Positions 1 through 7,944 of a stretch of 7,944 nucleotides of DNA are shown in pieces (within the stretch, counting starts at the first letter, position 1; every line of letters begins with the position of its first letter). Position numbers and translations under genes: made by a program. The notes below the pieces were generated by a model. It was not told the DNA's origin. It saw only the letters and a program-made list of their open reading frames with translations, and searched no databases. This DNA is from a virus (taxonomy: Duplodnaviria; Heunggongvirae; Uroviricota; Caudoviricetes), in IMG/VR virus record IMGVR_UViG_2585427761_000003, positions 1 through 7,944 of that record, one strand, 5' to 3'.

Positions 1-262
1 TGACAGTTTCGCGGGAGCCATCTGCAAAAATTGTGGTCACCTTGTAACTGAAGATGAGTCCTCGCAGTTTGATGACGAAATCGTTGACAATATCTTCGGT
101 GCACTCACCAGAGACTTTCTGAAGTAAAGGCGCATACCGCTTAGTTACCGCTCTGATAATTCTTACCTGTCCGGCAATGGCGCTGATATCAATATAAAGC
201 GCCATCGCTGTTTCTTTGCTGATCCCTGGATGCCTTCCATTCTGATGTTTGACTTCGCCCAC
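1..262 (-). CDS. hypothetical protein, 3'-truncated by window edge; gene immediately downstream of the repressor (moron position)
   Basis: Minus-strand frame is open from position 262 to the window edge with no stop; in-frame stop upstream at 286-284. Candidate starts: GTG 262-260 with SD-like AGAGGA (275-270) 7 nt upstream, or ATG 205-203. Translation from the ATG: MALYIDISAIAGQVRIIRAVTKRYAPLLQKVSGECTEDIVNDFVIKLRGLIFSYKVTTIFADGSRETV... Absent from the ORF track, presumably because no stop lies in the window. No family recognised. Confidence 0.5.
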   Translation of the reverse strand, partial: MGEVKHQNGRHPGISKETAMALYIDISAIAGQVRIIRAVTKRYAPLLQKVSGECTEDIVNDFVIKLRGLIFSYKVTTIFADGSRETV

Positions 263-340
263 TGAGAAATCCTCTGTTTCCCCTTAACGCCGGGGTAGCG
301 GAACTAAGACCTGTCGCACCGTTGTGCTTTGATGGAATAC

Positions 341-369
341 ATTGTTCTCTTTAGGTGAACGAAAGTCAA
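341..369 (-). promoter_or_regulatory. putative sigma70 promoter for the truncated minus-strand gene (-35 TTGACT, 17-nt spacer, -10 AACAAT)
   Basis: Minus-strand reading: TTGACT (369-364), 17 nt, AACAAT (346-341). Hexamers are identical to those of the putative rightward early promoter at 870-898. Spacer contains GTTCAC (plus-strand GTGAAC 355-360), the same half-site as the switch-region palindrome. Confidence 0.3.
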
Positions 370-383
370 CATGATGAATACGC

Positions 384-412
384 AAAAAAAAAAAAAACCG
401 CCTTGCGGCGGG
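384..412 (-). terminator. rho-independent terminator for the repressor transcript
   Basis: Plus strand shows A14 (384-397) then GC stem CCGCC (398-402), loop TTGC, GGCGG (407-411). On the minus strand this is a GC hairpin followed by a 14-U tract, 22 nt after the repressor stop (436-434). Confidence 0.8.
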
Positions 413-433
413 ATGATTCTGTAAAATAAAGAA

Positions 434-823
434 TTATTTTTGTCGTGTTATTGGGTCGACGTATTCTGAGTAAAATTCGGTCAGTTTTTGGAGTCGCATT
501 TGAAAAGCTGCCAGCATATTTCTACGTTCTACAGGTGGCAGGTTTCTGTAAACATCAAGCAGGGCCTTCTCGTCATCATCAAGCGCCTCTCTATTTGTCT
601 CTTCTTTCCCTGTCAGTAGCCAAGAAAGGGAAACGTTTGTGGCTTCTGCAATTTTGGCTGCGGAATCTTTACTGATTGTTCCTCTTTTTTTCCATGCGTT
701 GACTGATGAACGACCTACACCAGCGATACGCGCTAAATCTGAACCACTTAAATGATGCTGTTGAGAGATCGTATCTAACCTTTCTGCTAGCGGGGTGTCG
801 TATTGCTTTTTTCTCATGTCCAT
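434..823 (-). CDS. XRE-family helix-turn-helix phage repressor (CI functional analogue), 129 aa, no peptidase domain
   Basis: ORF-track ORF 434..823. HTH signature LSGSDLARIAGVGRSSVNAWKKRG near the N-terminus. Divergent from the Cro-like gene. Only 129 aa, so no room for an S24 (LexA-like) autocleavage domain. The -10 TATAAT (835-830) ends 6 nt before the ATG (823-821), suggesting a leaderless mRNA. Confidence 0.85.
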   Translation of the reverse strand: MDMRKKQYDTPLAERLDTISQQHHLSGSDLARIAGVGRSSVNAWKKRGTISKDSAAKIAEATNVSLSWLLTGKEETNREALDDDEKALLDVYRNLPPVERRNMLAAFQMRLQKLTEFYSEYVDPITRQK

Positions 824-926
824 TTGGCAATTATAACCGTTCAGTGAACACTAACAATTCCTCGAGGTGTTGACTTGTGTTCGTTTTAAGTGAACAATCG
901 TTGTGGTTAGTTGAACTGGAGGTTGT
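824..926. promoter_or_regulatory. immunity switch region: divergent back-to-back promoters and operator-like repeats
   Basis: Leftward promoter (minus strand): -35 TTGTTA (857-852), 16-nt spacer, -10 TATAAT (835-830). Rightward promoter: -35 TTGACT (870-875), 17-nt spacer, -10 AACAAT (893-898), then SD GGAGG (918-922) and ATG 927. Perfect 11-bp palindrome GTTCAgTGAAC at 839-849 lies in the leftward promoter spacer. Related sites: GTTAGTTGAAC at 906-916 (8/11 match) and AGTGAACA at 843-850 and 889-896. Confidence 0.6.
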
Positions 927-1202
927 ATGACAGCATTGGACAAAGCAATAAAGATTGCTGGTGGTATTCGTCCGCTAGGGCGTGCAATAGGGGCTTGGCC
1001 ATCTCAAATACACAAATGGGCAAATGAATACAATGGTCGAGTGCCGACGGGAGAACGGGTTCGTCAAATTTATATTGCAACTGGGGTTACTCCTCATGAA
1101 TTGCGACCAGATTTATACCCGAATCCAACTGACGGGTTGCCTGCTGGAGATAAGGCTAACACACCAAATACACCGGAGTTGATTCATGAAAATCAAGCAT
1201 GA
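927..1202 (+). CDS. Cro-like DNA-binding protein, YdaS family
   Basis: ORF-track ORF. First rightward gene, divergent from the repressor. Motifs A-x-x-I-A-G-G...LGRAIG...P-x-Q-I-x-K-W...TG-V-x-P-x-ELRPD match my recollection of the YdaS/Cro-like family of Rac-type prophages. Good SD GGAGG 4 nt before the ATG. Confidence 0.8.
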   Translation: MTALDKAIKIAGGIRPLGRAIGAWPSQIHKWANEYNGRVPTGERVRQIYIATGVTPHELRPDLYPNPTDGLPAGDKANTPNTPELIHENQA

Positions 1203-1611
1203 ACACATCCGCATGGCGATGAATGCCTGGGCGCGTCCTGATGGCGAAAAAGTTCCAGCAGCTGGAATAACCCAGGCTTATTTTGAGTTGGGTATGACGT
1301 TTCCTGAACTGTATGACGACAGCCATCCGGAAGCCCTGGCTCGCAATACACAGAAAATTTTCCGCTGGGTAGAGAAAGACACCCCTGATGCAGTTGAAAA
1401 AATTCAGGCGTTGTTACCAGCGATCGAAAAGGCAATGCCACCTTTGCTGGTGGCCAGAATGCGCAGCCACAGTTCAGCTTATTTTCGGGAGCTGGTGGAG
1501 ACGCGGGAGCGACTGGTGAGAGACGCTGATGATTTTGTCGCAGTGGCAATCGCCGGTTTCAATCAGATGAACCGTGGTGGCCCGGCAGGAAATGCTGTGG
1601 CAGTACATTGA
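1186..1611 (+). CDS. YdaT-family protein (annotated historically as toxin YdaT; CII-position regulator)
   Basis: ORF-track ORF. N-terminus MKIKHEHI, internal KIQALLPAI and C-terminal AVAVH match my recollection of E. coli Rac YdaT. Overlaps the Cro-like gene by 17 nt; SD GGAG 7 nt upstream of ATG 1186. Confidence 0.75.
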   Translation: MKIKHEHIRMAMNAWARPDGEKVPAAGITQAYFELGMTFPELYDDSHPEALARNTQKIFRWVEKDTPDAVEKIQALLPAIEKAMPPLLVARMRSHSSAYFRELVETRERLVRDADDFVAVAIAGFNQMNRGGPAGNAVAVH

Positions 1612-1682
1612 CTGACAATAGCCATATCGAATCGCTTCCGGCAACTCGTGAGTAAAATGATTCGGTATCAGAAGAGGTGAGT

Positions 1683-2753
1683 ATGGCTAACGCCTGGCTC
1701 AGATTATGGCATGACATGCCAAATGACCCTAAGTGGCGAACAATTGCCAGGGTGTCAGGGCAGCCAATTGCAACAGTGATGGCAGTGTATATCCACCTCC
1801 TGGTGAGCGCGTCACGAAATGTCACGCGAGGTCACATTGATGTCACGACAGAAGATTTGGCAAGTGCGCTCGACGTGACAGAAGAGGTAATTGATTCAAT
1901 TTTGCAGACGATGCAGGGGCGGGTACTTGATGGTGATTTAATCACTGGATGGGAAAAACGCCAGGTGCTGAAAGAGGACAACGGCAATATTTCGCAAACC
2001 GCAAAATCTCCTGCAGAGCGCAAGAGGGCGCAGCGAGAGAGGGAAAGAAAGCGGGAACAAAATGGCGATTGTCACGGCGCGTCACGAAATGTCACGCACA
2101 TGTCACGACGAGTCACGACAGATAAAGATACAGATAAAGATACAGATCAAGAAGATCAAAACACTATGGTCCATGGCGTAAAAAACGCCACGAACCAGGC
2201 AGGGGATGTTCAGACCGTCAATCCTGGTCAGCCAGCAGGCACGACACCGGAAGCCGATTCAGCGTATGCGCTGAAAGCCGATTCGGGCGCTGTGCAGCAG
2301 GTGATGACCGCAAGGCCGGAGCAATCACACCAACTGCAGCAGCCTGAAGCCGATTCCGCCATTCAGCGGGAAGCCGATCGGGTAGTCCCGGAAAGCACCG
2401 GGCAGTCTGTGGGACGAGTGGATTATCCGGATGTGTTCGAACAGGTCTGGCGGGAATACCCGTTGCGTGCCGGGGCAAACCCGAAGAAATCCGCTTTCAG
2501 TGCCTGGAAGGCCAGATTGCGCGAGGGGGTGCCACCAGAGACCATGCTGGATGGTGTGAGGCGTTACGCGAGATACCTGGCGGCGACCGGGAAAGCGGGA
2601 ACGGAATTTGTTCAGCGAGCGACGACGTTTTTTGGGCCGGACCGGAATTTTGAAAACCCCTGGTTGCTCCCGGTAAGCGGCACGAACAACCAGCGTTGTG
2701 TGAATCATATTTCTGAACCGGATACCGAAATTCCGCCGGGATTCAGGGGGTGA
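1683..2753 (+). CDS. phage replication initiation protein (lambda O functional analogue; YdaU-like) containing the putative origin iterons
   Basis: ORF-track ORF 1677..2753 begins at GTG 1677; ATG 1683 with SD AAGAGG (1672-1677) is the more likely start. Immediately precedes the DnaC-like gene with 6-nt spacing. Gene body holds two iteron arrays (see repeat features). The assignment rests on gene order, iterons and a recalled resemblance of the C-terminal region (YPDVFEQVWREYP...FFGPDRNFENPW) to YdaU-type replication proteins. Confidence 0.7.
   Translation: MANAWLRLWHDMPNDPKWRTIARVSGQPIATVMAVYIHLLVSASRNVTRGHIDVTTEDLASALDVTEEVIDSILQTMQGRVLDGDLITGWEKRQVLKEDNGNISQTAKSPAERKRAQRERERKREQNGDCHGASRNVTHMSRRVTTDKDTDKDTDQEDQNTMVHGVKNATNQAGDVQTVNPGQPAGTTPEADSAYALKADSGAVQQVMTARPEQSHQLQQPEADSAIQREADRVVPESTGQSVGRVDYPDVFEQVWREYPLRAGANPKKSAFSAWKARLREGVPPETMLDGVRRYARYLAATGKAGTEFVQRATTFFGPDRNFENPWLLPVSGTNNQRCVNHISEPDTEIPPGFRG
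1807..1879 (+). repeat. iteron array 1: four direct GTCAC(G/A) repeats at about 10-bp phasing plus one inverted copy
   Basis: GTCACG at 1811, 1821 and 1842; GTCACA at 1831 (spacing 10, 10, 11 bp); inverted CGTGAC at 1874-1879. The 21-mer GCGCGTCACGAAATGTCACGC (1807-1827) recurs exactly at 2077-2097. Confidence 0.65.
2071..2160 (+). repeat. iteron array 2 (five direct GTCACG repeats) followed by an A+T-rich tandem repeat; candidate origin core
   Basis: GTCACG at 2071, 2081, 2091, 2102, 2112 (spacing 10, 10, 11, 10 bp). Directly followed by GATAAAGATACA x2 and GATCAAGAA/GATCAAAAC (2121-2160), which is A+T-rich, holds two GATC sites and encodes DKDTDKDTDQEDQ. Confidence 0.6.
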
Positions 2754-2759
2754 TGTGGC

Positions 2760-3506
2760 ATGAAAAACATTGCGGCAGCCGGGGTTCTTGAACGTATTCG
2801 CAGACTTGCACCACAGGCGTCGGTTCCACCGTACCGGACGGTGGAGGAGTGGCGGGAATGGCAACTTGCTGAAGGACGAAAACGCAGCGAGGAGATTAAC
2901 CGCCAGAATCACCAGTTGCGGGTGGAAAAAATCCTGAATCGTTCGGGCATCCAGCCTCTGCACAGCAAATGCTCGTTTGCGAATTATCAGGTGCAGAACG
3001 ACGGGCAAAAATACGCGCTGAGCCAGGCCAAATCCATAGCTGACGAACTGATGACCGGGTGCACGAATTTTGTGTTCAGCGGTAAGCCGGGTACCGGAAA
3101 GAATCATCTGGCAGCAGCCATTGGCAACCATCTTCTGGCGAAAGGTCGCAGCGTGATTGTGGTGACGGTGGCGGATGTGATGCTGGCGTTACACGGCAAC
3201 TACGACAACAAAAACTCGGGCGAAAAGTTTTTGCAGGGGTTGTGTGAAGTTGACCTGCTTATCCTGGATGAAATCGGTATGCAGCGGGATACGCGTAACG
3301 AACAGGTCACACTGAACCAGATAGTCGATCGCAGAACGGCCTCGATGCACAGCGTCGGGATGCTGACGAACCTGAACCATGCGGCGATGAATACGCTGCT
3401 TGGTGAGCGCGTGATGGACCGCATGACCATGAACGGTGGTCGCTGGGTGAATTTTAACTGGGAGAGCTGGCGTTCAAATGTCAGTCATTTAAGGGTTGCG
3501 AAGTAA
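2760..3506 (+). CDS. DnaC-like replicative helicase loader (phage P/YdaV analogue), AAA+ ATPase
   Basis: ORF-track ORF. Walker A FSGKPGTGKNHLAAAIG, Walker B DLLILDEIG, and long stretches matching E. coli DnaC as I recall it (NRSGIQPLH, NQIVDRR, GMLTN, LLGERVMDRM, NFNWESWRS). Starts 6 nt after the initiator stop. Confidence 0.95.
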   Translation: MKNIAAAGVLERIRRLAPQASVPPYRTVEEWREWQLAEGRKRSEEINRQNHQLRVEKILNRSGIQPLHSKCSFANYQVQNDGQKYALSQAKSIADELMTGCTNFVFSGKPGTGKNHLAAAIGNHLLAKGRSVIVVTVADVMLALHGNYDNKNSGEKFLQGLCEVDLLILDEIGMQRDTRNEQVTLNQIVDRRTASMHSVGMLTNLNHAAMNTLLGERVMDRMTMNGGRWVNFNWESWRSNVSHLRVAK

Positions 3507-3520
3507 TTTCAGGAGGACTC

Positions 3521-3913
3521 ATGGCAAGCGTTTTTACACCTGAACAGCGGGAAGAACTGAAGGCACGAATTATCGGGCTGGTACACAGGAACAAACGCAT
3601 GACGATGTCGCAACTGGAGAGGGCAACGGGGGCGGGCTGGCATACGGTCAGACGTTGTCTTGTGGATGTGGTTGCTTGTGGTGATTTGTACATATCCGGT
3701 AAATACGGTGTTTTTGTATCAGAACAGGCGTATCAGGCGTGGTGTAAAACTCCGAAGAAAGCTGCCCCGGCACTGGTCCGGAAGTTACCTGATGGTGAAA
3801 TCCGTCGCTACGACAGAGACATGAACATAATTTGCCGGGAATGCCGTAACAGCGAATCAATGCAACGTGTACTGGCGTTCTATCGGGGTAATTTTCAGGA
3901 GGTGATGGAGTGA
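3521..3913 (+). CDS. hypothetical protein (130 aa)
   Basis: ORF-track ORF. Strong SD AGGAGG (3511-3516) 4 nt before the ATG. The N-terminal region (ELKARIIGLVHRNKRMTMSQLERATGAGWHTVRRCL) looks like a winged-helix segment. Family not recognised with confidence. Confidence 0.7.
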   Translation: MASVFTPEQREELKARIIGLVHRNKRMTMSQLERATGAGWHTVRRCLVDVVACGDLYISGKYGVFVSEQAYQAWCKTPKKAAPALVRKLPDGEIRRYDRDMNIICRECRNSESMQRVLAFYRGNFQEVME

Positions 3914-4209
3914 GGGTGAGGGTTTATATCGCCGGTCCGATGACCGGGTATAAAAATTTCAACCGTGAGGCGTTCCACAAGGCGGAAGAGGAACTGAAAC
4001 GGGAAGGGCATACAGTCTTAAACCCGGCAGTACTTCCGGACGGGCTGACACAGCCGCACTACATGGATATTTGCATGTCAATGATACGCTGCGTGGATGC
4101 GATTTACATGCTGAAAGGCTGGCAGCGGTCGGCAGGCGCTAAGGCAGAACTGGCACTGGCGGAGAAGCTGGGGCATGCAGTTATTTTCCAGGAGGCAAAC
4201 AGTGAGTAA
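3910..4209 (+). CDS. DUF4406-like protein (nucleoside 2-deoxyribosyltransferase-like fold), 99 aa
   Basis: ORF-track ORF. GTG start overlaps the upstream stop (GTGA); SD AGGAGG (3897-3902) with 7-nt spacing. N-terminal VYIAGPMTG motif, then NP-x-x-LP and W-x-RS-x-GA-x-AE-x-A-x-A-x-K-x-G-x-V, matching my recollection of the DUF4406 / NDT-like family. Confidence 0.7.
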   Translation: MRVRVYIAGPMTGYKNFNREAFHKAEEELKREGHTVLNPAVLPDGLTQPHYMDICMSMIRCVDAIYMLKGWQRSAGAKAELALAEKLGHAVIFQEANSE

Positions 4210-4666
4210 CCAATGGCGACCAGATATTTGCCCAATAACCGGACGTGCATTTTTCATGTGGATTGAGCATCCGAAATTGGGAAATGTACCGACGTATGGT
4301 GGCCCATTAGACAGTTACACCATTCCAACAAAGGACAGCGATGGTGAGTTTTCGTGTGAGCGTTACGATCATGATTTCGGTGGCTGGGTAGAAAGCGAAT
4401 GTCTAGGGTTATATCTGATTGATGATGAAGAACAATGCAGAGTCTACGAACTCGAGGAGCGCGTTAAAGAGCTGGAAGCGCGGGAAGTTCATTTACCGAC
4501 TCGCTACGGCCTTCGATATGGACATCCGATAAATGCTGATGAGCGCCACGTCATGATACCTAAAGAAAATGGCTGCTGGATTTATCTGGCTGATTTAGAG
4601 CACGTACTACGTGTTGCTGGTATTCGCATCAAAGGAGAGGAGCATGGAAATAAAACCAGAAGATGA
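4202..4666 (+). CDS. hypothetical protein (about 154 aa from GTG 4202; 163 aa if ATG 4175 is used)
   Basis: ORF-track ORF 4175..4666. I prefer GTG 4202 because of the strong SD GGAGG (4191-4195) with 6-nt spacing and a minimal 8-nt overlap with the upstream stop; ATG 4175 has a weak SD and a 35-nt overlap. Acidic, Cys-containing; family not recognised. Confidence 0.6.
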   Translation: MSNQWRPDICPITGRAFFMWIEHPKLGNVPTYGGPLDSYTIPTKDSDGEFSCERYDHDFGGWVESECLGLYLIDDEEQCRVYELEERVKELEAREVHLPTRYGLRYGHPINADERHVMIPKENGCWIYLADLEHVLRVAGIRIKGEEHGNKTRR

Positions 4667-5000
4667 GTTAAGTAATATTGTTTTATTTCCGGTAAAAGAG
4701 GATGACCCACGTAATCAGGTTAATTTTCTTTATGAGCCATCGGAAAGACCATATTGTCATCACGCCTCTGTCCGGGTTGACGAAAAAGAGCGTCAGGTCC
4801 GTTGTAAAATCTGCGGTGCAGTTGTGGAGCCGTTTGACTGGATGCTCTCTGTGGCGAAAAGAGAAACCAGACTGGCAGATGATGTAAGGCTATTGCGCCA
4901 GGAGGAACAGGAAAGGCGGAAAAATATAGAAAAGTTAATTCAGATTGAACGTAACGCGAAAGCGCGGATACGCAGGGCGACAAAATCCAGAACTGAATAA
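4644..5000 (+). CDS. hypothetical protein with Cys/His cluster and basic coiled-coil-like C-terminus (118 aa)
   Basis: ORF-track ORF 4611..5000; likely start is ATG 4644, preceded by AAAGGAGAGG (4631-4640). C-x-H-H ... C-K-I-C arrangement (PYCHHASVRVDEKERQVRCKICG) suggests a zinc-ribbon-like element. C-terminal 45 aa are rich in R/K/E/Q. Confidence 0.65.
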   Translation: MEIKPEDELSNIVLFPVKEDDPRNQVNFLYEPSERPYCHHASVRVDEKERQVRCKICGAVVEPFDWMLSVAKRETRLADDVRLLRQEEQERRKNIEKLIQIERNAKARIRRATKSRTE

Positions 5001-5095
5001 ATAAATTTAGTGCTGTAAATAAAAATTTAATCCTTAACCGGAGGGATTTCTGCACCCTCAAAACATCAGGAGGCCGCCTGAAAGGGCGGTAAGAA

Positions 5096-5314
5096 ATGAC
5101 TACATTATTCAGAAAAGAATATCCGAGAAAAAGTAGAGCGACAGAATTTTTGTTTCTCATTATATTTATCGTGTTGATGATACCGATACCCCCGCTATTA
5201 CTGGTCTGGTTTATCGTGAAAATAATTGAGCCAGTTATTGAATTGTATAACGACGTGGTGTGGGCGTCGTTCAGCACACTGCACAATAAAATTAATCCGT
5301 ATAAGGAAAGCTGA
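5096..5314 (+). CDS. small predicted membrane protein (72 aa) in an AT-rich insert
   Basis: ORF-track ORF. Hydrophobic core FLFLIIFIVLMIPIPPLLLVWFIVKII is consistent with one transmembrane helix. Stop (5312-5314) is 1 nt before the HNH start codon. SD is weak (AGGGCGG, 5083-5089), so confidence is moderate. Confidence 0.4.
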   Translation: MTTLFRKEYPRKSRATEFLFLIIFIVLMIPIPPLLLVWFIVKIIEPVIELYNDVVWASFSTLHNKINPYKES

Positions 5315-5315
5315 T

Positions 5316-5681
5316 ATGGCACTGACGAAAAAACAACGTGCAGAGCTGCGCATGAAGTTCGGCGGTCGCTGTGCTTATTGCGGCTGCGAACTTGGCGAAA
5401 AGTGGCATGCAGACCATGTAAAACCGGTCATTCGTTTTGATGGAAATATGCTTCACCAGGAACGTGACGATATATCCAATATGGTTCCGGCATGCCACCC
5501 ATGCAATCTGCACAAGCATTGCAGTAGTCTGGAAGATTATCGGCGAATTATCAGTGATGGTCGTCGTGAATTCCTTGCGTCCGGGAAAGGCAAAGCGCTG
5601 GTTCGTATGGGATTGGTTGAAATGAAATCTGACCCAGTTGTGTTCTGGTTTGAAAAATATCAAGAAGGGGCTACGGCATGA
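5316..5681 (+). CDS. HNH endonuclease (121 aa)
   Basis: ORF-track ORF 5226..5681 trimmed to ATG 5316, which has SD AAGGAAAG (5303-5310); the upstream extension is Cys/Trp-rich and unprotein-like. Classic HNH zinc-finger nuclease pattern: C-A-Y-C-G ... H-A-D-H-V-K-P ... [13 protein letters not shown]. Confidence 0.85.
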
Positions 5682-6022
5682 CGACTTTTACCAGAGAGCA
5701 GTTAATAGCTCACGCAGAGGAGACTATTGAAGCACAGAGACTGTGCATACCGGGCACAATCGACCATGACATCATCCGCACATATAAGATGGATATTGCT
5801 GTTCTGGAAATCGCACTGGTATCGCTGGCAGCAGAGCCAGCCGGTAAATTGCATGAATACAAACCAGTGGGATATCAGCGTCTGGTCGATGAGTTAACCA
5901 TGCTGGTAAAGCAGTTAACCTGGCAACTGAGGAAAGCGAAGCCAGACTGCAAATTACCGGATAAGGCGATGAGTTATCTGGAGCGGAACGGACTGATAAG
6001 CGTGGAGGATATTTTACGATGA
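5678..6022 (+). CDS. hypothetical protein (114 aa)
   Basis: ORF-track ORF. ATGA start/stop overlap with the HNH gene; SD-like AGGGG 7 nt upstream. No family recognised. Confidence 0.7.
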
Positions 6023-6102
6023 CCTGGCCTGAAGCATTCACAACGGTAGGAATTGCGATGGCGGTGGCGCTGGTGGTGTATTCGATTTGCCGCTGGGGAT
6101 AA
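6019..6102 (+). CDS. putative 27-aa hydrophobic peptide, translationally coupled to the upstream gene
   Basis: ATG 6019-6021 overlaps the upstream stop TGA (6020-6022). Encodes [27 protein letters not shown], stop TAA 6100-6102. One potential membrane helix. Last ORF before the terminator. Below the size cutoff of the ORF track, so support is purely positional and compositional. Confidence 0.3.
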
Positions 6103-6109
6103 ATCGCCG

Positions 6110-6150
6110 AAAAAAGATCCCGACATAAACATGAGCCGGGATCTTTGATT
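6110..6150. terminator. bidirectional rho-independent terminator between convergent operons
   Basis: 10-bp perfect stem AAAGATCCCG (6113-6122) / CGGGATCTTT (6137-6146) with a 14-nt loop. On the minus strand the hairpin is followed by TTTTTT; on the plus strand by TTTGATTTAT. Lies between the end of the rightward operon (6102) and the end of parE (6228). Confidence 0.7.
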
Positions 6151-6227
6151 TATATAGCCTACGAATCCGCCAGTAAGAGAGGGGGGCGGACGGTTAATTC
6201 TAACACCGGAATGATGTGGGTAAAAGT

Positions 6228-6527
6228 TTATAAGAAATCGGTTTCATAACTTTGCCCACCATGATAGATACCGACAATAAAGACTTTTCTGCTATCAACG
6301 GCAAAAGCAATAATCGTTCTGTGGCGGAAATGAGTTACCCGCATCCCCTGGCGAATATCATCGCGTTTATTGCCCCGATGCGGGAATGTAGAAAACCCAT
6401 CAAGATAATCAAGAAGCGCATTGGCATAATTGTCAGCAATGACGTTCCCTGCTTTCTCCGTTATATACCTGTGCAGGTTGATTATTTGTTGTTCGGCCTC
6501 AGGAGTAATGATGACTTCATATGTCAT
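6228..6527 (-). CDS. parE: ParE/RelE-superfamily type II toxin (99 aa)
   Basis: ORF-track ORF. Starts 5 nt after the stop of a ParD-like RHH antitoxin gene on the same strand. Size and sequence (MTYEVIITPEAEQQI...RVTHFRHRTIIAFAVDSRKVFIVGIYHGGQ) fit the ParE/RelE fold pattern. Confidence 0.85.
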   Translation of the reverse strand: MTYEVIITPEAEQQIINLHRYITEKAGNVIADNYANALLDYLDGFSTFPHRGNKRDDIRQGMRVTHFRHRTIIAFAVDSRKVFIVGIYHGGQSYETDFL

Positions 6528-6532
6528 GCAGA

Positions 6533-6790
6533 TTACTTCCCGGATCGAATCGCGGCGCGAACCTGTGAAATGGAGCGTCCGTTGTTTGGGTTTTCGCGGA
6601 TAGAATCAAGAGAGGGGGCGGCTGAATGCGTTAACCACGCTTCGATTGCTTTATCGCGCTCATTCAGTGCGCGAAGCCCTTCACGAATGACCTCGCTTTC
6701 TGAAGCATAGGCACCGGAAGCCACACGGGCGCGCACCATGTCAGCCATTTCGTTAGTTAATGTAATGCTGAATTGTTGGGTTGTACGCAT
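6533..6790 (-). CDS. parD: ParD-family (ribbon-helix-helix) antitoxin, 85 aa
   Basis: ORF-track ORF 6533..6853 trimmed to ATG 6790-6788, which has SD GAGG with 6-nt spacing; the 21-aa upstream extension is Ser/Gly-rich and unprotein-like. MRTTQQFSITLTNEMADMVRARVASGAYASESEVIREGLRALNERDKAIEAWL matches the ParD pattern (N-terminal beta-strand, G-x-Y-x-S-x-SEV-R-x-x-LR-x-L). Confidence 0.85.
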   Translation of the reverse strand: MRTTQQFSITLTNEMADMVRARVASGAYASESEVIREGLRALNERDKAIEAWLTHSAAPSLDSIRENPNNGRSISQVRAAIRSGK

Positions 6791-6925
6791 GGTAAACCTC
6801 ACGGAGTAGGATAGAACACCATTCGATGATAGCACGTTGCCTGTTGACGACAACAGAAATCAGAGACAATATTGCCGCACGCCAGCTTGAACAACTGGCA
6901 CCTGCTGCGCCAGCAGAGAAAACCG
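6791..6925. promoter_or_regulatory. putative parDE promoter/operator and divergent rightward promoter
   Basis: Minus strand: -35 TTGTCG (6853-6848), 16-nt spacer, -10 TATCAT (6831-6826). Inverted repeat CTGTTG-acga-CAACAG (6841-6856) overlaps this -35 and also a plus-strand TTGACG (6844-6849). A palindrome over the promoter fits RHH antitoxin autoregulation. Hexamer assignments are weak. Confidence 0.35.
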
Positions 6926-7198
6926 ATGGCGCACAATACCAAACATCACAATTCTGATATCGCCCCTGCCAGCAGGCAAGGGCGGTGTTCTCACACATTC
7001 AAATATGACTGGTATCAGCACGATCCCTGCACTGAAGAACAGGCCGAATGGCTGATTCATAACTACCGCAGACGTGGGTATGAGTTTAAGAAAGCCCTTA
7101 GCCTCGACTACCGTCACTGGATAATCTACGTCAGGCTCCTTTATTCCGAACGCCCGCCGCGTCCGTCCCGCACATTCCAGCAACGCATCTGGAGGTAA
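6926..7198 (+). CDS. hypothetical protein (90 aa from ATG 6926; 108 aa if TTG 6872 is used)
   Basis: ORF-track ORF 6872..7198 begins at a TTG. ATG 6926 keeps the start outside the putative divergent promoter region. Rich in aromatic and basic residues, Cys/His at the N-terminus (CSHTFKYDWYQHDPC). Stop is 1 nt before the GTG start of the DUF968-like gene. No family recognised. Confidence 0.45.
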   Translation: MAHNTKHHNSDIAPASRQGRCSHTFKYDWYQHDPCTEEQAEWLIHNYRRRGYEFKKALSLDYRHWIIYVRLLYSERPPRPSRTFQQRIWR

Positions 7199-7199
7199 C

Positions 7200-7944
7200 G
7201 TGCGGGTATTACTTCGACCTGTTCTGGTACCGGAACTCGGGCTGGTGATCGTTAAGCCGGGCCGTGAATCCATGCCGGTATTCCACAATACCCGGGTACT
7301 GGTGGAGCCGGAACCGAAAAGCATGCGTAATCTGCCGTCCGGGGTTGTTCCTGCCGTTCGCCAGCCGCTAGTGGAAGACAAAACATTGCTGCCGTTTTTC
7401 AGTAACGCACGGGTGATTCGTGCTGCTGGTGGTGCTGGTGCATTGTCTGACTGGCTGTTGCGCCATATTAAATCCTGCCAGTGGCCACACGGCGATTATC
7501 ATCACAGCGAAACCGTCATTCACCGTTATGGTACCGGCGCAATGGTGTTGTGCTGGCACTGCGACAACCAGCTGCGCGACCAGACATCCGAATCACTCGG
7601 GCAGCTTGCTCAACAAAATCTGACAGCCTGGATGATTGACGTCATCGGTCACGCAATAAGCGGTACGCAGGAGCGTGAATTATCTCTGGCTGAATTATCC
7701 TGGTGGGCGGTCCGCAATCAGGTGGCGGACGCGCTACCGGAAGCGGTATTACGTCGTTCGCTGGGGTTGCGTGCGGAAAAAATCCGCTCAATGTACCGTG
7801 AAAGCGACATCGTGCCGGGAGAGCAGACCGCCACCAGCATACTGAAACAGCGCACAAAAAATCTTGCGCCGCTGCCTCACGCCCACCAGCAACAGAACCC
7901 ACCACAGGAAAAGACGGTGGTCAGCATTGCCGTTGATCCTGAGT
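7200..7944 (+). CDS. DUF968-like prophage protein, 3'-truncated by window edge; possible HNH-like Cys/His motif
   Basis: Not in the ORF track. Frame opens at GTG 7200 (the first possible start after the in-frame stop at 7122-7124), SD GGAGG (7191-7195), and I translated 248 codons to the window end without a stop. Begins VRVLLRPVLVPELGLVIVKPGRESMPVFHNT, which matches my recollection of DUF968 N-termini. Contains CQWPHGDYHHSETVIHRYGTGAMVLCWHCDN. The minus-strand ORFs listed here (6860..7381, 7368..7559, 7642..7905) have low-complexity translations and are treated as antisense artefacts. Confidence 0.7.
   Translation, partial: MRVLLRPVLVPELGLVIVKPGRESMPVFHNTRVLVEPEPKSMRNLPSGVVPAVRQPLVEDKTLLPFFSNARVIRAAGGAGALSDWLLRHIKSCQWPHGDYHHSETVIHRYGTGAMVLCWHCDNQLRDQTSESLGQLAQQNLTAWMIDVIGHAISGTQERELSLAELSWWAVRNQVADALPEAVLRRSLGLRAEKIRSMYRESDIVPGEQTATSILKQRTKNLAPLPHAHQQQNPPQEKTVVSIAVDPE

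Follow-up and report, generated by a model that had tools for sequence, protein, structure and literature searches.

Four early-right accessory genes of a lambdoid Escherichia coli prophage, among them a candidate DNPH1-like DUF4406 enzyme, are probably shuffled cassettes

Introduction

In phage lambda, the gene ren directly follows the replication gene P, and ren and the nin genes, which are small, overlapping and dispensable-looking, are carried on the pR transcript after the replication genes. Here we describe four genes of the same kind that, by analogy, occupy the place of ren and nin in a lambdoid prophage of Escherichia coli, downstream of an O-like and a DnaC/YdaV-like replication gene. 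They lie at positions 3521-5000 of a DNA stretch of 7,944 nucleotides (IMG/VR record IMGVR_UViG_2585427761_000003, positions 1 to 7,944; Caudoviricetes), hereafter the window, and the second of them encodes a protein of the family DUF4406, the main subject of this work. A sequence-only reading of the window had proposed that the four genes are one translationally coupled module centred on the DUF4406 protein, which would modify the nucleotide pool or phage DNA, or destroy a nucleotide-based immune signal. We consider it probable instead that the stretch is an internal piece of the pR operon in which four accessory cassettes were joined by module shuffling, and that the DUF4406 protein is a lone enzyme acting on 2'-deoxynucleoside 5'-monophosphates (dNMPs).

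The described proteins closest to DUF4406 are the nucleoside 2-deoxyribosyltransferases (NDTs), DNPH1/Rcl and the CMP N-glycosidases MilB and BcmB. In NDT and DNPH1 dimers, about 50 C-terminal residues complete the active site of the neighbour, and in NDTs this segment supplies the neighbour's acceptor-site carboxylate. NDTs proper carry the motif D-x-G-[ST]-x-x-E, and MilB shares with DNPH1 the spacing S-x-G-x-x-x-E. S98 of DNPH1 reportedly binds the 5'-phosphate according to studies of rat Rcl, and E104 of DNPH1 is the nucleophile, trapped in a glycosyl-enzyme intermediate in PDB entry 8qhr. Y24 and D80 of DNPH1 are named as active-site mutant sites in PDB entries 8rqd and 8rpt. The sole related experimental precedent that we found in phages is a PF05014-type NDT with dA preference that acts in diaminopurine (dZ) phages (bioRxiv 10.1101/2025.10.22.683976).

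Two of the other genes described here are related to Ead/Ea22-like proteins. Ea22 combines an N-terminal domain and a coiled coil with a C-terminal domain that varies (PMC10834534), and its effect is reported to be pro-lysogenic (PMC7093339). The first gene belongs to the family DUF977, whose winged-helix fold was assigned by profile methods (PMC2686095).

Results

The four genes are all on the plus strand. Gene 1 (3521-3913) starts at ATG 3521, 4 nt downstream of the Shine-Dalgarno (SD) sequence AGGAGG at 3511-3516, and does not overlap the previous gene. Gene 2 (3910-4209), encoding the DUF4406 protein, starts at GTG 3910 behind the SD sequence AGGAGGTGA at 3897-3905, its start overlapping the TGA of gene 1 (3911-3913) by 4 nt as GTGA. 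The GTG of gene 3 at 4202 (4202-4666) lies 6 nt downstream of AGGAGG (4190-4195) and overlaps the TAA of gene 2 (4207-4209) by 8 nt, while gene 4 (4644-5000) starts at ATG 4644, 6 nt downstream of AAGGAG (4632-4637), with an overlap of 23 nt with the end of gene 3, whose stop is at 4664-4666. The Pfam matches of genes 1 and 2, together with the database relatives of gene 3 (1,034) and gene 4 (150), indicate that these are real genes rather than chance open reading frames (ORFs), and the identical four reading frames are annotated by RefSeq in E. coli prophages, with equal lengths for genes 2-4. Gene positions, overlaps and SD sites are thus as the sequence-only reading had them, and its view that the tightly packed genes are translationally coupled is probably right.

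We asked whether the four genes are kept together and in the same order across divergent genomes, as expected for a conserved module, and this was not found. Of 80 loci that encode DUF4406 relatives in different bacterial species, 3 have DUF977 nearby, 2 have gene 3 and 2 have gene 4. Clustering by similarity of the 146 ORFs immediately next to DUF4406 gave 113 clusters with at most 6 members each, and the genes that recurred within 5 kb were generic temperate-phage genes, encoding S24 repressor, integrases, lysozyme, Dam methylase, Rep_O, RdgC, NinG and RusA. Four-base overlaps with whichever neighbour was present were also common in these loci. DUF4406 has no conserved partner.

We also looked at E. 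coli-type contigs of IMG/VR, using 80 DUF977-seeded and 80 gene-4-seeded loci, a highly redundant sample in which counts are not independent events. Around DUF977, 69 of the 80 loci had DUF4406, 50 had gene 4 and 12 had gene 3. Around gene 4, DUF977 was found in 72 of the 80 loci, DUF4406 in 23 (absent from 57) and gene 3 in 10; gene 4 stood directly after DUF977 in 41 loci, and the sequence of its upstream junction was preserved regardless of the preceding gene. These architectures suggest that DUF4406 and a variable Ea22-like gene form an optional insert between the more persistent pair DUF977 and gene 4.

We then determined prevalence by megablast-level comparison with 5,426 complete genomes of E. 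coli, requiring at least 80% of each gene. The present DUF977 allele occurred in 55 genomes, DUF4406 in 1,213, the gene-3-specific part in 77 and gene 4 in 1,679; the whole stretch 3400-5100 was found in one place in 15. Best matches, taken gene by gene, came from differing sets of strains (99.2% with R1, 99.7% with 2013C-3342, 100% with KFu019 and 98.6% with C311), a pattern that reads as a signature of mosaic recombination. A functional module centred on DUF4406 found no support: the four genes differ from one another in prevalence and in their closest relatives.

The databases also hold several chimeric proteins, which are either true recombinants or frameshift artefacts across short overlaps: P0280 joins residues 1-86 of gene 4 to the C-terminus of DUF977, P0121 and P0126 join DUF4406 to gene 3, and P0242 and P0127 join the Ead N-terminal domain to gene 4 or gene 3. 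In addition, a 3-kb contig of a metagenome-assembled genome labelled as the actinobacterium 'Collinsella sp.' (JAIHTM010000290.1) carries DUF4406 and gene 4 at 96% and 98% identity to the window, next to a more diverged DUF977 (53%) and gene 3 (61%); bin contamination is the likely explanation.

As to transcription, the only pR-like promoter found by a consensus scan is at 870-898 on the plus strand (TTGACT-17-AACAAT), a sigma-70 pattern match only. On the plus strand in and just 5' of 3521-5000, the scan gave no promoter-like and no convincing terminator-like site, internal signals not exceeding chance, and no RNA element turned up in the whole window with Rfam (E<=1). The promoter at 870-898 thus most likely drives the entire early-right operon, the four genes included, which places these genes inside a transcript that extends from about position 927 to 6022 at least. 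Genes abut or overlap all along this operon (927-1202 and 1186-1611 overlap by 17 nt, and the junctions 2753/2760, 3506/3521, 5314/5316 and 5681/5678 are equally tight); since this is the rule over the whole operon, overlap is not specific to the four genes. The earlier description of a four-gene operon is too narrow.

We next consider the DUF4406 protein itself. The 99-aa product of gene 2 matched Pfam DUF4406 (PF14359) with 129.3 bits (cut-off 22, E 7e-38), residues 4-93 covering positions 2-91 of the 91 profile positions. Its AlphaFold2 model, built from a 44-sequence alignment, had a pLDDT of 91.8 and a pTM of 0.85 and showed the topology beta-alpha-beta-alpha-beta-alpha-beta, a three-layer alpha/beta, Rossmann-like arrangement of the NDT type. 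In Foldseek searches with this model, NDTs, MilB, BcmB and DNPH1 ranked first, with NDT-type matches above TIR; TIR and ThsA-SLOG domains appeared as distant structural neighbours. DUF1937 (PDB 1t1j, a structural-genomics protein) is a separate Pfam family, itself uncharacterised, and adds nothing on the function of DUF4406. By its predicted structure the protein is a minimal NDT/DNPH1-fold domain, so that model and structural search bear out the NDT-like fold that had been proposed from motifs. PDB sequence searches with the protein and with its profile gave no relevant match; the link to NDTs and DNPH1 therefore comes from fold comparison only.

Conservation was computed over 150 cluster representatives. 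G9, F22 and S74 were present in 100%, G76, E80 and Y51 in 99%, A77 in 98%, and N18 and R19 in at least 90%, giving the conserved set Y6, N18-R19, Y51, S74-x-G76-A77-x-x-E80 and A84. In the model, E80 comes after strand 64-67, within helix 75-87, and is Glu in 142 of 144 representatives. We aligned the family profile by hhalign with human DNPH1, whose sequence was checked against PDB chains. The full-length alignment, whose score is not significant (E 0.05-0.09), paired Y6, G9, S74, G76 and E80 with Y24, G27, S98, G100 and E104 of DNPH1, and the S-x-G-x-x-x-E spacing is that of DNPH1. By position, E80 corresponds to the Glu nucleophile of the superfamily and Y6 to the aromatic residue after strand 1. 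Of the representatives, 86% have Tyr and 13% have Phe at the Y6 position; in work on MilB and BcmB (PDB 4jel-4jen), Tyr at this first position reportedly marks deoxy-specific enzymes and Phe, as in MilB and BcmB, ribo-specific ones.

The family is large, with 18,070 clusters at 50% identity (E<=1e-3), and we found it in 324 phage records of many hosts. No Pfam partner domain was found among 35 long DUF4406 representatives, most of whose additional length probably stems from over-extended ORFs or is sequence of unknown nature. In some actinophages, the DUF4406 gene adjoins a gene for a MazG-type dNTP pyrophosphohydrolase; in mycobacteriophage Nebkiss, for example, gp126 (DUF4406) overlaps the MazG-like gp127. 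Moreover, PHROG 12019, named 'MazG-like pyrophosphatase', contains the DUF4406 domain and structural neighbours in BFVD include such entries, which suggests DUF4406-MazG fusions. A route from dNTP to dNMP and on to base and deoxyribose-5-phosphate is conceivable in those phages. These weak hints all come from actinophages or uncultured phages, none from the E. coli prophage studied, and MazG was absent within 5 kb of the DUF4406 gene in 80 genome loci.

Some DUF4406 records carry other names. Those called 'deoxycytidylate deaminase', Nebkiss gp126 and PhluffyCoco gp54, are plain DUF4406 homologues of 95-123 aa (1510-1797 of locus L242 and 1480-1851 of locus L244), and the 'MazG-like protein' Orisa01_00067 is a 42-aa ORF call covering part of a DUF4406 match (1657-1785 of locus L243). 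Both labels are probably wrong; the proteins are plain DUF4406, one of them merely MazG-adjacent.

Gene 1 encodes a protein of 130 aa that matched Pfam DUF977 with 173 bits (cut-off 22.1, E 4e-51) and PHROG 142, 'Ren-like exclusion protein', with E 1.2e-42; its residues 1-70 matched PHROG 2391, 'DNA binding protein', in line with the winged-helix nature suggested by the sequence-only reading. The C-terminus of lambda Ren resembles that of DUF977, with 45% identity to the last 29 aa of gene 1 (E 1e-6), a similarity limited to this segment, and PHROG 142 groups both. The gene starts 15 nt past the DnaC-like gene, as ren directly follows P. We thus regard gene 1, on sequence and position, as a Ren-like, winged-helix protein and the positional equivalent of lambda ren. 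Unlike DUF977, however, Ren has 96 aa and no Pfam match, and the extra N-terminal winged-helix domain of DUF977 is undetectable in it. Gene content also differs from that of the lambda nin region, except for Ren and a weak NinG match of a downstream HNH gene.

Gene 3 (154 aa) looks like a stand-alone Ea22-type module: its N-terminal domain is variable, a short coiled coil follows, and the C-terminal part of about 70 aa is conserved. Pfam gave no match for it and PHROG 250 matched residues 77-147 only; other prophages fill this slot with relatives that share the C-terminal 70 or so residues but differ in the N-terminal half. Its residues 1-145 are 93% identical to residues 114-258 of P0127, a 259-aa ead/Ea22-like protein. 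Gene 4 (118 aa) has a disordered N-terminus, a zinc-ribbon-like hairpin (C-x-H...C-x-x-C, residues 38-59) and a basic helix of 55 residues. It matched PHROG 1621 (function unknown) with E 1.5e-56 and Pfam Zn_Ribbon_TF weakly, below the cut-off. C38, H40, C54 and C57 are invariant in its family, which is restricted to Enterobacterales, and the basic C-terminal helix is highly conserved. The AlphaFold2 model, of moderate confidence (pLDDT 73, pTM 0.40), is mostly one long helix (63-117) preceded by a hairpin (43-54), and agrees with the zinc-ribbon-like protein with a basic tail described before. Residues 2-118 of gene 4 are 99% identical to residues 86-202 of the Ead/Ea22-like P0242 of E. marmotae.

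These identities place genes 3 and 4, on sequence comparison, in a pool of exchangeable C-terminal modules of Ead/Ea22-like proteins, which fits the reported Ea22 design. Unlike those proteins, neither gene matches the Ead/Ea22 N-terminal domain PF13935, as only the regions C-terminal to it in P0127 and P0242 match, and both belong to the right operon instead of lying between exo and xis.

We also looked for links with defence and DNA modification. In PADLOC-DB, genes 1-3 had no match at E<=0.1 and gene 4 a chance-level match only (E 0.03), and the window holds no modification genes. Retron-type NDT effectors were considered as relatives of DUF4406 and rejected, as the PADLOC models gave no match. 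The literature on NDTs in connection with anti-defence gave nothing on function. The anti-defence or DNA-modification role put forward earlier is thus not borne out.

As a whole, the window runs from the immunity region into the early-right region of a Rac/Qin-type lambdoid E. coli prophage, and E. coli chromosomes match every segment of it at 92-100% identity. A CI-type repressor gene (434-823, minus strand; Pfam Phage_CI_repr) is adjoined by a pRM-like promoter match (857-830, minus strand; consensus scan) facing the pR-like site. On the plus strand follow a YdaS-type gene in cro position (927-1202) and a YdaT-type gene in cII position (1186-1611), assigned by Pfam, which labels both proteins as toxins. 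The O-like replication gene (1677-2753, plus strand) encodes a protein with no match to Pfam Phage_rep_O; it contains two clusters of GTCAC(G) repeats of about 10-nt spacing, at 1811-1849 and 2071-2119, that look like origin iterons by comparison with lambda O. The DnaC/IstB-like helicase-loader gene (2760-3506, plus strand; Pfam IstB_IS21, E 1.3e-17) is YdaV-like, RefSeq naming its relatives 'ydaV: ATP-binding protein', and is the last gene of the replication module, directly upstream of gene 1.

Downstream of gene 4, a GC-rich inverted repeat (about 5066-5088) lies 5' of the gene for a DUF4014 membrane protein (5096-5314, plus strand; Pfam DUF4014), of 72 aa with a hydrophobic centre, whose PHROG 1832 is described as 'released from the phage upon host infection'. 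An HNH endonuclease gene (5316-5681, plus strand; Pfam HNH) and a mosaic gene of unknown function (5678-6022, plus strand) continue the same operon, these three genes matching PHROGs 1832, 2118 and 660. The HNH protein, in this nin-like region, is weakly similar to Septu PtuB, to a retron-associated HNH protein and to the HNH domain of IscB. A ParE-toxin/ParD-antitoxin pair (6228-6527 and 6533-6853, by Pfam and RefSeq names) lies on the minus strand within the early-right region. RefSeq prophages of like gene order continue into RusA, DUF968 and DUF1133, then into the late region.

Discussion

The reading that we prefer, and consider probable, is that of shuffled accessory cassettes within the pR operon, with a DUF4406 protein that most likely acts alone. 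Overlaps and strong SD sites would then reflect operon-wide packing and coupling and not a shared function. The DUF4406 protein appears to keep the DNPH1/Rcl signature, a Tyr after strand 1 and Ser-x-Gly-x-x-x-Glu opening the last helix, and this combination points to a dNMP as ligand and to N-glycosidic cleavage as chemistry. We infer that the protein is probably a stand-alone N-glycosidase on deoxynucleotides, which would bind a dNMP and cleave its N-glycosidic bond through a sugar intermediate linked to Glu80. Produced soon after induction, the enzyme would trim or clean the pool of nucleotides while phage DNA replicates. The gene lies beside the replication genes on the pR transcript, which the lysogen represses and which is expressed early on induction; such a role fits this timing better than a defence expressed in the lysogen does. 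The dZ-phage NDT is a precedent for an NDT fold shaping the purine deoxynucleoside pool, although here no dZ or other modification pathway is found near DUF4406.

Several observations weigh against this proposal. The protein missed the threshold of PF05014 (Nuc_deoxyrib_tr; 13.6 bits against a cut-off of 28.8, E 0.076), and hhalign scores with NDT-type proteins were not significant (E 0.05-0.26). The triad residue D80 of DNPH1 falls on C55 of DUF4406, a position with Cys in 70% of representatives and Asp in 13%, and the nearby D53 is conserved in 45% only; a Cys at this place may mean that the chemistry differs, or that the protein only binds its ligand. Compared with DNPH1/Rcl, NDTs, MilB and BcmB, DUF4406 is without the C-terminal, dimer-completing segment of about 50 residues (99 aa, against 135-165 aa for the structural targets). 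Nothing biochemical or genetic was found in the literature on DUF4406 and DUF977. Finally, DUF4406 comes after DUF977 in 69 of the 80 DUF977-seeded loci, the two being frequent neighbours within E. coli prophages, even if those contigs are redundant.

Could the four genes nonetheless be one co-translated module, centred on DUF4406, for modifying the nucleotide pool or phage DNA or for destroying a nucleotide immune signal? The overlaps, the SD sites and the NDT-like fold are real, TIR and ThsA-SLOG domains, which are distantly similar in structure, handle NAD-derived signals, and to the frequent adjacency of DUF977 and DUF4406 can be added the rare fused ORFs P0121 and P0126. We nevertheless hold it very unlikely, as the partnership is not conserved beyond close relatives, DUF4406 is missing from most gene-4 loci, the full set is found in very few genomes, tight overlap is general in the operon, and neither PADLOC matches, nearby modification or signal genes nor literature were found; the fused ORFs form clusters of 1-2 members and are consistent with a frameshift across the 8-nt overlap. 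The functional unit could otherwise be DUF977 with gene 4, a Ren-like DNA binder with a zinc-ribbon/coiled-coil partner, serving replication control or exclusion, with DUF4406 and gene 3 as passengers. The frequent presence of DUF977 around gene 4, often directly adjacent, and the junction kept upstream of gene 4 whatever gene precedes it speak for such a unit, which we regard as possible though on the unlikely side. The loci are redundant E. coli prophages and the gene 4 family does not extend beyond Enterobacterales; next to a gene 4 of 99-100% identity, DUF977 ranges from 50 to 99%, which indicates recombination between the two. Gene 4 is moreover also fused to the Ead N-terminal domain, away from DUF977, and the sole database chimera of both, P0280, is a single-member cluster.

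Other readings concern the DUF4406 protein alone. PHROG and many phage annotations make it a true NDT performing base-exchange salvage: PHROG 355 bears that name, several NDTs are among the top structural matches, fold and predicted Glu nucleophile position are common to both, and the PF05014 NDT of dZ phages is active. The failed PF05014 cut-off, a motif of the DNPH1 type (S-x-G-x3-E, with S74 aligned to S98) and the missing C-terminal segment make this improbable. A reading of the protein as no enzyme but a small nucleotide-binding sponge or regulator, or else as a TIR-like NAD-cleaving protein, acting in either case on a host or phage partner, is unlikely as well: E80, S74 and G76 are near-absolute in 150 divergent representatives and lie at the NDT/DNPH1 nucleophile position, as catalysis predicts, and NDT-type structures rank above TIR among the matches. 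It is also rather doubtful, if somewhat less so, that the protein is a minimal DNPH1-like stand-alone enzyme that destroys one specific (deoxy)nucleotide in early lytic growth, the four-gene grouping being incidental. Its candidate targets would be a damaged or non-canonical dNMP, a dNMP arising from a host pool-depleting defence, or a nucleotide immune signal. If this is true, temperate phages across many bacterial phyla would share in DUF4406 a widespread and so far overlooked enzyme that sanitises the nucleotide pool or counters defence.

In conclusion, shuffled cassettes around a lone, probably dNMP-directed enzyme remain our preferred account, and as such the finding is an ordinary one. 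The genes are already catalogued, databases holding all four at 96-100% identity under the names DUF977, DUF4406 or hypothetical, and the present copy is of little importance, the region being known as a mosaic of accessory genes. The DUF4406 family itself is of wider interest: temperate phages of Proteobacteria, Actinobacteria, Firmicutes and other phyla have members of this uncharacterised family, with its about 18,000 clusters and intact DNPH1-like signature, in their early regions. Knowing its function could correct inconsistent labels such as "nucleoside 2-deoxyribosyltransferase", "deoxycytidylate deaminase" and "MazG-like", and a function found biochemically for a single member would extend to thousands of phage genes.

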